From: Verrucomicrobia bacterium UBA1629
GTDB lineage: Bacteria > Verrucomicrobiota > Kiritimatiellia > RFP12 > UBA1067
Direction of reading: 5' to 3'
DNA: 64,000 bases
NCBI GenBank assembly: GCA_002321305.1
Contig: DCMF01000098.1
Coordinates: 28,976-92,975, forward strand
Part shown: positions 22,471-25,734 of the stretch, piece by piece
How the letters are laid out: every line of letters begins with the position of its first letter
How positions within the stretch are numbered: position 1 is the stretch's first letter
Notes under the pieces: model-generated
What the model was told of the DNA's origin: nothing
Database searches by the model: none
What the model saw: only the letters and a program-made list of their open reading frames with translations
Position numbers and translations under genes: made by a program

Positions 22471-25400
22471 TTAGAGGAACTTGCCCGTGACGGATTCGGC
22501 ACAGGCGCGGATCGTGGGGACAGGACCCTCGCAGACGAGACGGCCGCCCTTGTCGCCGCCGCCCGGCCCCAGGTCGATGATCCAGTCCGCGCACTTCATG
22601 ACGTCCGTGTTGTGCTCGATGACGACGACCGTGTTGCCCTGCGCGCGCAGGGCCAGCAGGATCTTCATCAGTTTCGCCACGTCGTCGAAGTGCAGCCCCG
22701 TCGTCGGCTCGTCGAGGAGGTAGAGCGTCTTGCCCGTCGAGCGGCGCGAAAGCTCCGTCGCGAGCTTGATGCGCTGGGCCTCGCCGCCCGACAGCGTCGT
22801 CGCGGACTGTCCGAGCTGGATGTAGCCGAGGCCGACGTCGACGAGCGTCTTCATCTTGCGCGCGAGAGACGGCACCTTCGCGAAGAACTCGTACGCCTCG
22901 GCGACCGTCATCGACAGGACGTCCGCGATGGTCTTGCCGCCGTAGGTCACTTCCAGCGTCTCGGCGTTGAAGCGCTTGCCGCCGCACTGCTCGCACGTCA
23001 CGTAGACGTCGGGCAGGAAGCTCATCTCCAGCTTCTGCACGCCGTCGCCGCCGCAGACTTCGCAGCGTCCGCCCTTCACGTTGAACGAGAAGCGCCCCGC
23101 CGTGTAGCCGCGCGCCTTGGCGGCCTCGGTCTGCGCGAACAGCTCGCGGATCTCCGAGAAGAAGCCGACGTAGGTCGCCGGATTCGAGCGCGGCGTGCGG
23201 CCGATCGGCGACTGGTCGATCTCGATCACCTTGTCGAAGTTCTCCAGTCCCGTCAGCTTGCGGTACTTGCCCGGCACGGCCTTCGCGCCGTAGAAGTGCT
23301 TCATCAGCGCCCGCTTCAGCGTCTCGTCGATCAGCGTCGACTTGCCGGAGCCGGACACGCCCGTCACGACCGTGAACGCCCCGACCGGAATGTGGACGGT
23401 GATGTTCTTCAGGTTATGCTCGCTCGCGCCGGAGAGAGTGAGGCAGGGAGAATTCGTCGAATAATCGAATCGACGAATGCTCGAATCGCTGCCGCGCACG
23501 CCCTTCATTCGACGATTCGACAATTCACCGATTCGATTATTCGACGATTCGACGATTCGATTATTCGACGATTCGATTATTCGATTATTTCCCTTCCGCA
23601 AATACTCGCCCGTCAGGCTCTTCGCCTTCAGCAGCCCCTTGAAGTCGCCCTGGTACATGACCTCGCCGCCCTCGCGTCCCGCGCCGGGGCCGAGGTCGAT
23701 GATCCAGTCCGCCGCGCGCATCATCTCCTCGTCATGCTCGACGATGACGACGGTGTTCCCTCGGTCCCGGAGGCCCTTCAGGGTCGCGATCAGCCGCTCG
23801 TTGTCGCGCGGATGCAGACCGATCGTCGGCTCGTCAAGGACGTAGAGGACGCCCGTGAGGCCCGAGCCGATCTGTGTCGCGAGGCGGATGCGCTGCATTT
23901 CGCCGCCGGAGAGCGTCGCCGCCGCACGGTCGAGCGTCAGGTAGTCGAGGCCGACGTCGAGCAGGAACTGCAGGCGGCGCGTGATCTCGGCGAGAATGTC
24001 CTTGAGGGCCGCGAGCTTCGAGAGGTCGAGCGACGAAAGGTCGGCGAGAGCGGCGATTTCTTCTTTTTGACTTGGGGGGCGTGAGGGACGAGAGAGACAC
24101 GAGGCCCTCGCGTCCCTCTTGGCCCTCACGTCGCTCACGTCAGATGGGACAATCGCCTCCTTCAACGAATCGAAAAACGCCTTGGCCTCGCCGACGGGGA
24201 GCGCCATGACGTCGCTGATCGTCTTGCCGGCGACCGTCGCCGCGCGGGAGAACTCGTTCAGCCGCGCGCCATGGCACGTGGGACAGACGCGATAGCTCTG
24301 GTAGGCCTCGTACTTCGCGCGCGTCTCGTCGTCCTCGGCCTCGTCAAGCCGCTTCTTCAGCACGGCCAGGACGCCCTCGAACGGACGGTCCACCGAGCGC
24401 CACGGCAGCACGAGGTCTTCCTTGAAGCCGTGCATCAGGTCGTGGCGGAACTTCGCCGGCAGCTTCTCGTAGGGCGTATCGAGCTTCACGCCGGACTGCT
24501 TTGCGATCTCCTCCAGGAGCGCGTTGTAGTACATGATCGCGTTGTGCCCCGCGCGCCGCCACGGGTGAATGCACTCGCGCAGGGGCAGCGTCTTGTCCGG
24601 CACGACCAGGTCCTCGTCGAAGTAGTAGAGCTGGCCGAGACCGCCGCACGTCGGACACGCGCCGAACGGCGAGTTGAACGAGAAGGAACGCGGCTTCAGC
24701 TCGTCGAAGGAAAGTCCGCAGTCGACGCAGGCGTTGAGCTCGGAGAAGGAAATAATCGAAGGAATAATCGAATGATCGAATGATCGAATTTTCGAATGGC
24801 GTTCCGCCCAAGAACGAGAAGAGGATGACTCTCCACCATTCATTCGATTACTCGACGATTCGACAATTCGATTATTCGACGATTCGACCATTCGATTATT
24901 TCCTCCCAGCACTTCGACTTTCATCACGCCCTTGCCGGTCTTGAGGGCGAGTTCGACCGAGTCGGTGAGGCGCGTGCGGTCGCAGGGCAAGACGAGGCGG
25001 TCAATGACGACGTCGATGCTGTGGGCCTTCTTCTTGTCGAGTTCGGGCACCTCTTCGAGCAGATACGTCGCGCCATCGACGCGCACACGCGCGAAGCCAT
25101 TTCGCTTCAACGTCGCGAAGACGTCCTCGTGGCGTCCCTTCTTCCCCTTCACGACCGGGGCGAGAAGGAGGATCTTGAGACGAACGTCTTGACTTGAGGG
25201 ACTGGAGGGGCGAGAGGGGCTGGAGGCACTCGCGTCGCTCAGGTCACTCTTGTCTCGCACGTCAGAAGACTCACTCGCCTGACAGACATCCTTGCCCATT
25301 TCCTCCGGCAACCGCTGTATCGCATCGACGATCTGCTCGGCGGACTGGCGGGTGACGGGCTTGCCGCACTTCGGACAGTGCGGCGTCGCGACCGAGCCGT

Positions 25401-25734
25401 AGAGGATGCGCAGGTAGTCGTGGATCTCCGTGACGGTCGCGACGATGGAGCGCGGATTGCCGCTCGTCGTGTGCTGCTCGATGGAGATCGCCGGGGACAG
25501 GCCCTCGATCTTCTCGACGTCCGGCTTCTCCATGCGGTCGAGGAACTGACGCGCATAGGCGGACAGCGACTCGACGTAGCGGCGCTGGCCCTCGGCGTAG
25601 AGCGTGTCGAAGGCGAGGGACGACTTGCCGCTCCCGGAGAGGCCGGTGACGACCGTCAGAGAGTTGCGGGGGATCGTGACGTCGATCCCCTTCAGGTTGT
25701 GGACACGTGCGTTGGTGATGACAATGTCAGACAT
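22471..25734 (-). CDS. uvrA: Excinuclease ABC subunit A (UvrA). It is enlarged to 1087 aa by four in-frame repeat-element insertions.
   Basis: N-terminal [37 protein letters not shown], both ABC modules, and zinc-finger cysteines. Inserts are [20 protein letters not shown]..., [28 protein letters not shown]..., [26 protein letters not shown] and [25 protein letters not shown]. Confidence 0.95.
23449..23593. repeat. Family B element (inverted arrays of CGAATAATCG / CGATTATTCG units around a short GC-rich core), in frame in uvrA.
   Basis: gaattcgtcgaataatcgaatcgacgaatgctcgaatcgct...cattcgacgattcgacaattcaccgattcgattattcgacgattcgacgattcgattattcg. Confidence 0.8.
24071..24152. repeat. Family D palindromic element, in frame in uvrA.
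   Basis: ggggcgtgagggacgagagagacacgaggccctcgcgtccctcttggccctcacgtcgctcacgtc. Confidence 0.7.
24748..24903. repeat. Family B element, second copy in uvrA (inverted arrays flanking a roughly 45-bp core).
   Basis: ggaataatcgaatgatcgaatgatcgaattttcgaatgg...cattcgattactcgacgattcgacaattcgattattcgacgattcgaccattcgattatttcc. Confidence 0.8.
25188..25285. repeat. Family D-like element, in frame in uvrA.
   Basis: gacttgagggactggaggggcgagaggggctggaggcactcgcgtcgctcaggtcactcttgtctcgcacgtcag. Confidence 0.6.

Follow-up and report, generated by a model that had tools for sequence, protein, structure and literature searches.

In-frame hairpin elements at four recurrent sites of a Kiritimatiellia uvrA gene and their association with PF05635 and GxxExxY genes

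Introduction

The uvrA gene in a 64,000-nt stretch of DNA from Verrucomicrobia bacterium UBA1629, a member of the Kiritimatiellia (assembly GCA_002321305.1, contig DCMF01000098.1, positions 28,976 to 92,975; the whole stretch of 64 kb is hereafter called the window), encodes a protein of 1087 amino acids (aa), in which four repeat-derived segments lie between the conserved parts of the enzyme. What are these segments, how are they related to repeats elsewhere, and how does the gene accommodate them? An earlier, sequence-only reading had described them as in-frame insertions of two repeat families, B and D, comparable to the Rickettsia palindromic elements (RPEs). Our analysis of the window and of related loci suggests, with a probability of roughly 0.7, that they are dispersed non-autonomous hairpin elements, that family B, and probably the others too, is the miniature form of a gene-bearing element resembling the intervening sequences (IVSs) of 23S rRNA genes, and that copies are kept where the host gene tolerates them.

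Results

Four additional segments in an intact UvrA

The window has a GC content of 65%, and its relatives are metagenome-assembled genomes (MAGs) of uncultured gut Kiritimatiellia/Kiritimatiellaeota from human, ruminant, horse and chicken samples. The uvrA gene and its inserts are located as follows.

22471-25734, minus strand: uvrA coding sequence, ATG start, 1087 aa, intact class I UvrA
25186-25302 (array part 25188-25285), minus strand: site 1 insert, aa ~145-183, decayed family D inverted array
24754-24900, minus strand: site 2 insert, aa ~279-327, two-armed family B hairpin (24841-24900 and 24745-24798)
24004-24159, minus strand: site 3 insert, aa ~526-577, family D palindrome 24071-24152 with a variable tail
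23443-23595, minus strand: site 4 insert, aa ~714-764, unequal-armed family B hairpin (long arm 23507-23591, short arm 23450-23488)

The open reading frame (ORF) matches a solved UvrA over its full length (PDB 2r6f, E 1.3e-299), with Pfam matches to UvrA_inter, UvrA_DNA-bind and ABC_tran. Its translation keeps two Walker A motifs, two ABC signatures, two Walker B motifs and the CxxC zinc motifs, and the two ABC ATPase modules, zinc modules, UvrB-binding domain and insertion domain of a class I UvrA are all present. A protein identical to this UvrA (P0001) was found in both NCBI and ENA assemblies.

When the protein was aligned with phmmer to five solved UvrAs, the same five blocks appeared in every alignment shown, separated by four segments found only in the query. 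In the DNA, each of these segments encloses (at site 2 to within a few nucleotides) one interval reported before, which bears out both the four inserts and their position between conserved blocks with the frame kept open. The distances between the conserved anchors at sites 1 to 4 are 55, 66, 72 and 59 aa, compared with baseline distances of 13-15, 14-22, 25-31 and 26-29 aa among 48 Kiritimatiellia uvrA loci.

An AlphaFold2 model based on a 21-sequence alignment reached a mean pLDDT of 43.6 and was not used; the positions of the sites come instead from alignment to solved structures, from Pfam limits and from domain maps in the literature. Site 1 lies within the UvrB-binding domain near its start and splits the Pfam UvrA_inter match at profile positions ~17/18. 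It corresponds to about Mt residues 145-148, if the 3zqj chain has a 21-residue tag, some 10 residues before a segment (155-200) that is disordered in two crystal structures. Site 2 follows directly after the UvrA_inter match, toward the C-terminal end of the UvrB-binding domain, and thus at the opposite end from the published flexible pivot between zinc module 1 and this domain. Site 3 is situated between the DNA-binding (insertion) domain and the first ABC signature, and site 4 in the linker joining the two ABC halves. All four inserts lie in naturally variable or flexible regions of UvrA.

Three of the four inserts fold far better than shuffled sequences as single-stranded DNA or RNA, while control segments of uvrA do not. 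Predicted free energies were -33.3 kcal/mol as DNA (z -5.12) and -59.7 as RNA (z -5.34) for site 2, and -40.3 kcal/mol (z -4.65) and -62.4 (z -4.15), respectively, for site 4. Site 3 reached z -2.22 as DNA and -47.5 kcal/mol (z -4.27) as RNA, and the decayed array at site 1 folded no better than its shuffles (DNA z +0.23, RNA z -0.54). The inserts comprise 33-52 aa of low-complexity sequence, and the loops of the uvrA copies measure 17-50 nt with no ORF inside.

Opposed arrays of short units as a common architecture

Families B, D and G share one layout, in which a tandem array of a short unit is followed by a loop and by an array of the reverse-complement unit; several families with 7-nt units have the same layout. 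The purine-rich arm comes first in all two-armed elements of every family. The units are 7-9 nt long and not self-complementary, and pairing occurs solely between the opposed arrays. The distinction drawn earlier between an inverted-array family B and a palindromic family D is consequently one of unit sequence rather than of kind: two dispersed families are indeed present in uvrA, but with a single architecture.

The family B copies of uvrA (23449-23593 and 24748-24903) consist of a tandem 8-nt array (AATNNTCG), a loop and the inverse array, with AATAATCG, AATCGTCG, AATGGTCG and similar unit variants. In the window, AATAATCGAAT occurs 22 times with at most one mismatch, against 0.16 expected. 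The family D copies (24071-24152 and 25188-25285) are built of a 9-nt unit, GACGYGAGG / CCTCRCGTC, and have almost no loop; the window holds 23 double-unit matches compared with 4.5 expected, and none of 100 shuffles reached that number. Family G has the 9-nt unit GGTTTGGRA / TYCCAAACC (17 window matches, 0.03 expected). Several families of the window (TGAGGGG, GTTTGGGAG) are rich in G and T and resemble telomeric repeats, and site 4 of another Kiritimatiellia uvrA (L021 4988-5052; L numbers denote retrieved loci) holds an insert of CCCTAACC-type units.

A hairpin census of the 65% GC window by BLAST self-hits and by the density of inverted 7-mer seeds gave no better result than shuffled sequence, so that the census was based on Tandem Repeats Finder (TRF) arrays and a check for reverse-complement partners. 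No Rfam family matched anywhere in the window at gathering thresholds. A conserved 3' motif unique to family D was considered and rejected, as it represents a variant unit plus an A-rich tail.

Dispersal and termini

Scanning metagenome contigs for the family B pattern yielded 104 stretches. Within 41 high-GC loci we classified 51 family B elements, of which 22 are intergenic, 12 lie at a gene edge and 17 inside ORFs supported by third-position GC content; one of these 17 is the orthologous site in kpsF. Two-armed copies at unrelated loci share termini that extend past the array (...GGRA-AATAATCGAAT ... ATTCGATTATT-TYCC...), and about 50 unrelated loci show this conservation of the ends. AATAATCG is invariably the outermost unit, whereas the inner units vary and the loops (17-110 nt) are mutually unrelated. 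Family B is also found in low-GC organisms (L103, L106), where it is equally AT-rich, suggesting horizontal spread. Family D copies likewise share their ends, TCWGACGTGAG ... CTCACGTCWGA or an A-rich tail.

Elements of different families may also be nested. Family D sits just inside a family B arm in L088 and L185, and short family B-like left ends precede family D elements at site 1 of the window, where the array is preceded by GGAGGAAAT, and at site 4 of L003. Judged from these arrangements, nesting followed by decay would be a plausible route to family replacement. As a separate observation, the family B left terminus (GGAGGAAAT / GAGGAGAAAT) is Shine-Dalgarno-like, for example at window 24900-24908, L124 ~3040 and L100 ~5295, and several copies directly adjoin a start codon or the end of a gene, which may be relevant to the choice of target or to how a carried gene is expressed.

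Turnover at fixed sites in uvrA

Next, we compared the inserts among orthologues. UvrA proteins of relatives at 74-91% identity range from 946 to 1144 aa; their cores are near-identical in the alignment, and the same four sites hold mutually unalignable repeat peptides or almost nothing. The closest comparison was possible between the window, L081, L082 and L003, whose uvrA cores are 96.2-97.4% identical at the DNA level. The four sites are occupied as follows.

Site 1: empty in L081; family D in the window; family G in L082; family G minus its centre in L003
Site 2: family B in all four, with differing unit numbers and loops
Site 3: family D in all four
Site 4: family B in three (L081 is short of exactly 24 nt, or three units); family D in L003

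The segments are thus no conserved domain of the orthologues, as family, length and presence differ at 96-97% core identity. Across the clade, the four sites are recurrent hot spots. With sites 2, 3 and 4 common to close relatives and all four sites recurrently used, the four independent insertions that had been proposed cannot be shown.

For a broader view, 48 species-level Kiritimatiellia uvrA loci were fetched via short conserved peptides, and hence without pre-selection for intact ORFs. Single open frames were found in 46/48, despite inter-anchor lengths of 13-83, 14-112, 25-74 and 26-82 aa, that is, from the baseline up to +90 aa. One of the two remaining loci ends with its contig, and the other (L021) has a frame change near codon 20, off any array (3001-3070), which is probably a consensus or assembly error of the MAG. 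A gene disrupted by frameshifts, the other outcome envisaged in the sequence-only reading, is accordingly found neither here nor in these 46 species.

We also considered whether the elements are pre-adapted to coding, with an excess of open frames over that expected from composition. This idea was rejected: the elements are open in no more frames than their shuffles, one intergenic family is closed in 6/6 frames, and the site 2 element is open in just one of six, the uvrA frame. Since coding copies are no more open than shuffles and the frame is nevertheless kept, they look like survivors of selection for an open frame, which would in turn imply that the ribosome reads through them.

Gene-carrying relatives of the hairpins

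In L103, L124, L163 and L195, which were selected by the DNA pattern alone or through the protein, the arms and termini of family B bracket an ORF of ~130 aa of the PF05635 type. Matches to PF05635, "23S rRNA-intervening sequence protein", were obtained for the ORFs of L103 (E 8e-12) and L124 (E 1.5e-13), and both also match TIGR02436, "four helix bundle protein", with E 1e-20 and 5e-20, respectively; the L163 ORF was identified by tblastn and that of L195 by a precomputed PF05635 annotation. L131 has family B arrays on one side of its PF05635 gene only, within the recovered locus, and L155 an array upstream of such a gene. Three further PF05635 paralogues are flanked by complementary arrays of AATTACCG, AATAACCG and GATTGTTCG units. 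The occurrence of L124, L195 and L197 in one syntenic slot indicates that the gene and both arms seem to diverge together.

A second gene family shows the same arrangement. In L081, a 96.6% relative of the window, a GxxExxY gene (PF13366, PD-(D/E)XK) between the secretin gene and coaE is bracketed by CACGGATT-type arrays: within 3795-4454, complementary arrays of this type occupy ~180 nt on the upstream side of the gene and 130 nt on its downstream side. L082 retains a 3-unit CACGGATT-type remnant, and the window, where the corresponding place is ~29800-30125, contains no match to this array type. Four more GxxExxY contexts from unrelated organisms contain CACGGATT-, CACGAATT- or CACTAATT-type arrays with gene-less hairpin copies alongside. 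Altogether, complementary arrays flank the gene in 7/7 PF05635 and 5/5 GxxExxY contexts, with units that differ by paralogue. Most homologues of both families are found on contigs of 0.5-2 kb, which is expected if arrays break assemblies; in short-read MAGs, both the genes and their arrays are probably recovered too rarely or in truncated form.

Further copies and features of the window

Beyond uvrA, arrays lie in frame in four genes of the window, namely murC, infB, coaE and a kpsF-like gene, and others occupy spacers and the leaders of rho, recA, ackA and uvrA.

5338-5593, minus strand: murC, complementary pair of family G arms at 5557-5593 and 5338-5413, each in frame
8360-8480, minus strand: N-terminal region of infB, family D-type array (8455-8480) followed by a 7-nt (CCCCTCA)n array (8360-8437), in frame
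17430-17465, no strand assigned: family D-type array in the recA leader
29006-29114, no strand assigned: 7-nt array TGAGAGG x15.6 in the rho 5' leader
29397-29576, minus strand: coaE (29125-29805), family G hairpin of 180 nt, in frame
38082-38170, no strand assigned: intergenic family D hairpin 3' of the kpsF-like gene
38380-38505, minus strand: kpsF/gutQ-like gene (SIS and CBS), family B hairpin in the CBS region, in frame, RNA fold -64.1 kcal/mol (z -5.78)
39339-39418, no strand assigned: family D hairpin filling the spacer 5' of the kpsF-like gene
41791-41841, no strand assigned: family B array with one arm, lying between the stop codon of a 4233-aa ORF and ackA

The two murC arms are not adjacent. 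They lie 143 nt apart in two different MurC loops, around 46 aa of conserved native MurC (PGRHN...GVERR), and may be independent solo arms; alternatively, native gene sequence may form the "loop" of a single element. L112 has an orthologous copy of the family B hairpin in the kpsF-like gene, and coaE of L082 carries family G too.

Turnover extends to the non-coding copies. The rho leader holds the 7-nt array family in the window and L082 and family B in L081, and the recA leader family D in the window and family B at the orthologous place in L125. In the spacer upstream of the kpsF-like gene, the flanks (86 and about 90 nt) are 100% identical between the window and L112, and the whole ~150-nt spacer is different, with a family D hairpin in the former and a GGAAGAA/CTTCTTC hairpin in the latter; both fold significantly. 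The same spacer contains family D arms and one family B arm in L101, and a PF05635 gene beside family B arrays in L131. Counted per 10 kb, short-period arrays number 5-9 in the window and in its closest relatives. More distant Kiritimatiellia mostly have 0-4, with a maximum of ~8 in L044, and unrelated bacteria mostly 0-2, with a maximum of 4.5 in the GC-rich L070.

The region 5' of uvrA (25735-26513) comprises ~780 nt and is made up almost wholly of repeats, with two copies of a 19-nt unit, 2.4 of a 12-nt unit, eight of a 13-nt unit (25857-25961, with stops in all six frames), four of a 10-nt unit and three of a 45-nt unit (26226-26363), besides an inverted repeat (26075-26190). In the relative L165, uvrA starts 73 nt from rho homology, without this repeat region and without the HEAT-repeat gene. 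Elsewhere in the window, a C5 cytosine methyltransferase gene (PF00145) adjoins a gene for a XamI-like restriction endonuclease (PF09572) at 10902-13068; the third-position GC of this pair, 0.68-0.70 compared with ~0.9 in the neighbours, suggests a recently acquired restriction-modification system. Two small ORFs of the acyl-carrier (PP-binding) type (2279-2686 and 4575-4883), also of lower third-position GC (0.71), have a 481-aa ORF (551-1993) and glycosyltransferase genes as neighbours. Three very large ORFs lie on the minus strand: 17478-22502 (1674 aa), 41837-54535 (4233 aa; L166 is 77% identical to it along 13 kb) and 54908-64000 (>3031 aa, leaving the window).

Discussion

Relation to known repeat elements

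Palindromic elements in frame within genes are a hallmark of Rickettsia, where RPEs of roughly 150 bp encode a conserved peptide (PMC10969869). The window elements agree with them in being dispersed palindromes of ~100-150 bp in several families, which lie in frame in unrelated, conserved housekeeping genes, leave the ORF intact and add a peptide at tolerated regions. They differ in host, which belongs to the Kiritimatiellia and not to the Rickettsiales; in their arms, which are variable-copy arrays of 7-9 nt units around hypervariable loops instead of a fixed consensus with a conserved peptide; in the alternation of families at one site in near-identical strains; and in the link to PF05635 and GxxExxY forms. 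The description of RPEs thus sets the elements apart, and we do not file them as such. Ten of these families, RPE-1 to RPE-10, are reportedly known, and Ogata et al. are said to have described such elements in 2000.

Repetitive extragenic palindromic (REP) sequences offer the closest precedent by host gene. Di Nocera et al. (2013) described REPs within repair genes: both uvrA genes of Opitutus terrae carry dual inserts, and inserts also occur in uvrA of Thioalkalivibrio (PMC3733652), so that palindromic repeats in uvrA, which had seemed striking from the sequence, are as a bare phenomenon less surprising than assumed. As in the window, palindromes occur there within uvrA and other repair genes, several per gene, in flexible linkers or loops, and in a related phylum (Verrucomicrobia, with O. 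terrae as a relative from the same PVC group). However, REPs are single stem-loops of 20-40 bp with a stem of 6-13 bp, a loop of 2-5 nt and a GTAG or CGTC tag (PMC3733652); each folds on itself, and they are associated with RAYT (Y1) transposases. The uvrA elements form their stem from two opposed arrays of units that are not self-complementary, and their termini are others: family B ends in GGRA-AATAATCG ... CGATTATT-TYCC, and the GACG/CGTC of family D is internal to every unit and not terminal. We noticed no RAYT gene in the 64 kb of the window or in the relatives' fragments, which were not searched systematically for it. The analogy with Rickettsia therefore stands for the consequence, an in-frame insert with the ORF kept, and does not extend to membership in the REPs, nor, probably, in the RPEs.

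The IVSs of 23S rRNA genes, known from Coxiella burnetii and Leptospira, come closest in architecture. In Coxiella, the IVS measures 428 nt and is described as "selfish"; its terminal inverted repeats form a stem of 28 bp, and it contains variable heptameric repeats as well as an ORF for S23p (PF05635). RNase III excises it, and IVSs replace tetraloops of rRNA helices (PMC4990558). PF05635 proteins resemble Avd, a protein of diversity-generating retroelements (DGRs) (PMC10053308). Our elements resemble IVSs in the long stem that their terminal inverted repeats can form, in the varying number of short direct repeats within the stem region, in the PF05635 gene of the full-length family B element, and in being sited where a hairpin or loop is tolerated; both are deemed selfish. 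Known IVSs are found in rRNA helices, from which RNase III excises them. The uvrA copies, in contrast, have no internal PF05635 ORF and lie in coding genes and spacers, where the ribosome must read through. As they lack the ORF but have arms and termini like those of the gene-carrying copies, we file them as putative miniature derivatives and not as IVSs.

A comparable relationship between short non-autonomous hairpins and a rarer gene-carrying unit with the same ends, including the pairing of gene and repeat by family, exists for REPINs and RAYTs and for miniature inverted-repeat transposable elements and their insertion sequences (PMC3116915; PMC10969869). Here, the genes (PF05635, PF13366) are not known transposases, and the arms are arrays instead of unique inverted repeats. 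PARCELs (palindromic amphipathic repeat coding elements) have longer, coding repeat units that belong to surface proteins in Mollicutes and further microbes, in contrast to the short-unit hairpin arrays scattered over housekeeping genes and spacers described here. They, too, are intragenic palindromic repeat DNA translated in frame (PMC2996958).

In-frame palindromic selfish DNA and IVS-like elements are thus already known kinds. No description seems to exist of such an array architecture, of rapid turnover at fixed sites in this form or of a link with PF05635 and GxxExxY genes; our literature search found nothing relevant on GxxExxY, PF13366 or four-helix-bundle proteins together with repeats, nor on repeats in Kiritimatiellia, which is only suggestive given its incomplete coverage.

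Origin and maintenance of the inserts

We propose that the four UvrA segments are copies of short, non-autonomous, dispersed hairpin elements. Each element consists of a (7-9 nt unit)n array, a loop and a (reverse-complement unit)m array, and has termini that are characteristic of its family. Family B, and judging by architecture probably the other families as well, would be the gene-less miniature of a larger element, in which the same inverted arrays surround a gene for a PF05635 protein (23S rRNA IVS / Avd-like four-helix bundle) or a PF13366 protein (GxxExxY PD-(D/E)XK nuclease). This larger element would be of the selfish kind called IVS in 23S rRNA genes. Copies would spread or be replaced at a high rate; in a gene-dense genome they would last only in 5' leaders, spacers, flexible loops and inter-domain linkers, and within genes only where length and frame leave the ORF open. 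Such survivors would be translated as disordered low-complexity loops (e.g. NNRIVESS...SIRRFDYS), with the catalytic core of UvrA intact. Resident hairpins may attract, or be replaced by, other families through nesting and decay or through allele exchange, which would explain the differing families at the same sites in near-identical strains. Architecture, dispersal, termini, in-frame persistence, turnover and the association with two gene families are observed directly, and from these we infer translation of the inserts, derivation of the miniatures from gene-carrying forms and insertion directed by hairpins.

Several points weigh against this proposal. No gene-carrying version of family D or G was present in about 1.4 Mb of retrieved loci, and the tie of these two families to the gene-carrying forms would be one of shared architecture only. 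The window contains neither a PF05635 nor a GxxExxY gene, the retrieved sequence contains no recognised transposase, and the two protein families are not known to act in mobility. Target-site duplications were not evident at 14 family B copies or in comparisons of filled and empty sites, among which no site was cleanly empty: site 1 of L081 keeps a mini-palindrome, and the "empty" site of the window at 40478-40487 overlaps a ribosome-binding region. The unrelated loops of paralogous family B copies, the many single-armed copies and the murC arms in two different loops fit less well with simple copy-and-paste of a master element. Reading-frame preservation is the sole evidence for translation of the inserts, all sequences are MAG or metagenome assemblies, and the presence of different families at one site could have arisen by homologous exchange between old alleles instead of by new insertions.

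In an unlikely alternative, the elements are synthesized in place: at a DNA break, a short template would be copied repeatedly onto both 3' ends, either by slippage or in a manner resembling telomerase or a reverse transcriptase, and the extended ends would then be joined as left-(U)n-junction-(rcU)m-right, with Avd-like PF05635 proteins as cofactors. Loops unrelated in sequence and length between paralogous copies, unequal and frequently single arms, the uniform polarity with the purine-rich arm first, the native sequence between the murC arms and the homology of PF05635 to the DGR reverse-transcriptase cofactor Avd would all be in line with such a process. It does not account for family B termini that reach past the array with a constant outermost unit variant, for the common ends of family D, for identical termini bracketing gene-carrying copies or for arrays flanking a gene at all, and no reverse transcriptase was seen in the retrieved sequence. 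A role for the host is about equally improbable. By their length, the predicted RNA duplexes are plausible substrates of RNase III, an enzyme that cuts IVS stems (PMC4990558). Arrays are present in the rho, recA, ackA and uvrA leaders, and the hairpins could tune the expression of uvrA, recA and rho as sites of RNase III cleavage or of transcriptional pausing; alternatively, gain or loss of one 7- or 8-nt unit shifts the frame and could act as a phase-variable mutator switch, and Di Nocera et al. have speculated on mutator effects of REPs in repair genes (PMC3733652). However, presence, family and length vary freely in near-identical strains and some relatives are insert-free, which argues against a conserved function, and the 48 loci include no uvrA allele frameshifted by an array.

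That the segments are native, lineage-specific UvrA linkers grown by replication slippage, and thus ordinary low-complexity evolution, has very little probability, even though all four sites are naturally variable or flexible regions and a frame-preserving copy-number step is seen in the 24 nt by which L081 is short at site 4. The dispersal data largely refute it: identical units, arm arrangement and termini recur outside uvrA, both in genes unrelated to it and between genes, and also in other organisms, some of them of low GC. At the protein level, the inverted arrangement makes no sense, and unrelated families swap at one site between strains that are 96-99% identical. Removal of the inserts before the protein functions, as introns, inteins or excised IVS-like RNA that make the frame irrelevant, is similarly improbable. 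Related IVS elements are indeed excised from rRNA (PMC4990558), but RNase III excision without ligation would destroy the mRNA rather than splice it. An intein needs at least ~130 aa, and the uvrA inserts of 33-52 aa are far smaller; they are of low complexity, with no intein or intron features and no Rfam match. Preservation of the frame in 46/48 species over very different insert lengths, and a site 2 element that is open solely in the uvrA frame, would be unexpected if the inserts were removed. An assembly or binning artefact, with repeats mis-joined into uvrA, has next to no probability: repeats do break assemblies, as the short contigs of PF05635 and GxxExxY homologues illustrate, but the identical UvrA protein exists in two independent records, and independent assemblies from different samples have inserts at the same sites with intact frames.

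Miniature hairpin elements kept at tolerated positions remain our preferred explanation. In an extended form, which we regard as possible but rather doubtful, inverted short-unit arrays would constitute a hitherto unrecognised superfamily of mobile hairpin elements that home to hairpin tips or loops, and whose full-length members carry a PF05635 or PF13366 gene that co-evolves with its own unit, similar to RAYTs and REPs; 23S rRNA IVSs would then be a special case and the inserts of uvrA, murC, coaE, infB and the kpsF-like gene the gene-less form.

Implications

A highly conserved repair enzyme here bears about 170 extra residues of probable selfish-DNA origin at four sites, and the insert sites turn over between strains that are otherwise 96-99% identical. 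The inserts define permissive positions in UvrA, MurC, CoaE, IF-2 and the KpsF-like protein, and the breaking of contigs at arrays is a warning for annotation and MAG assembly. The arms and termini shared with PF05635 elements, together with the arrays flanking GxxExxY genes, provide a testable handle on the nature and spread of IVSs and on the role of two abundant families of small proteins. If the superfamily interpretation were true, it would assign a role to two very large families of "hypothetical proteins" and would explain how IVSs move.

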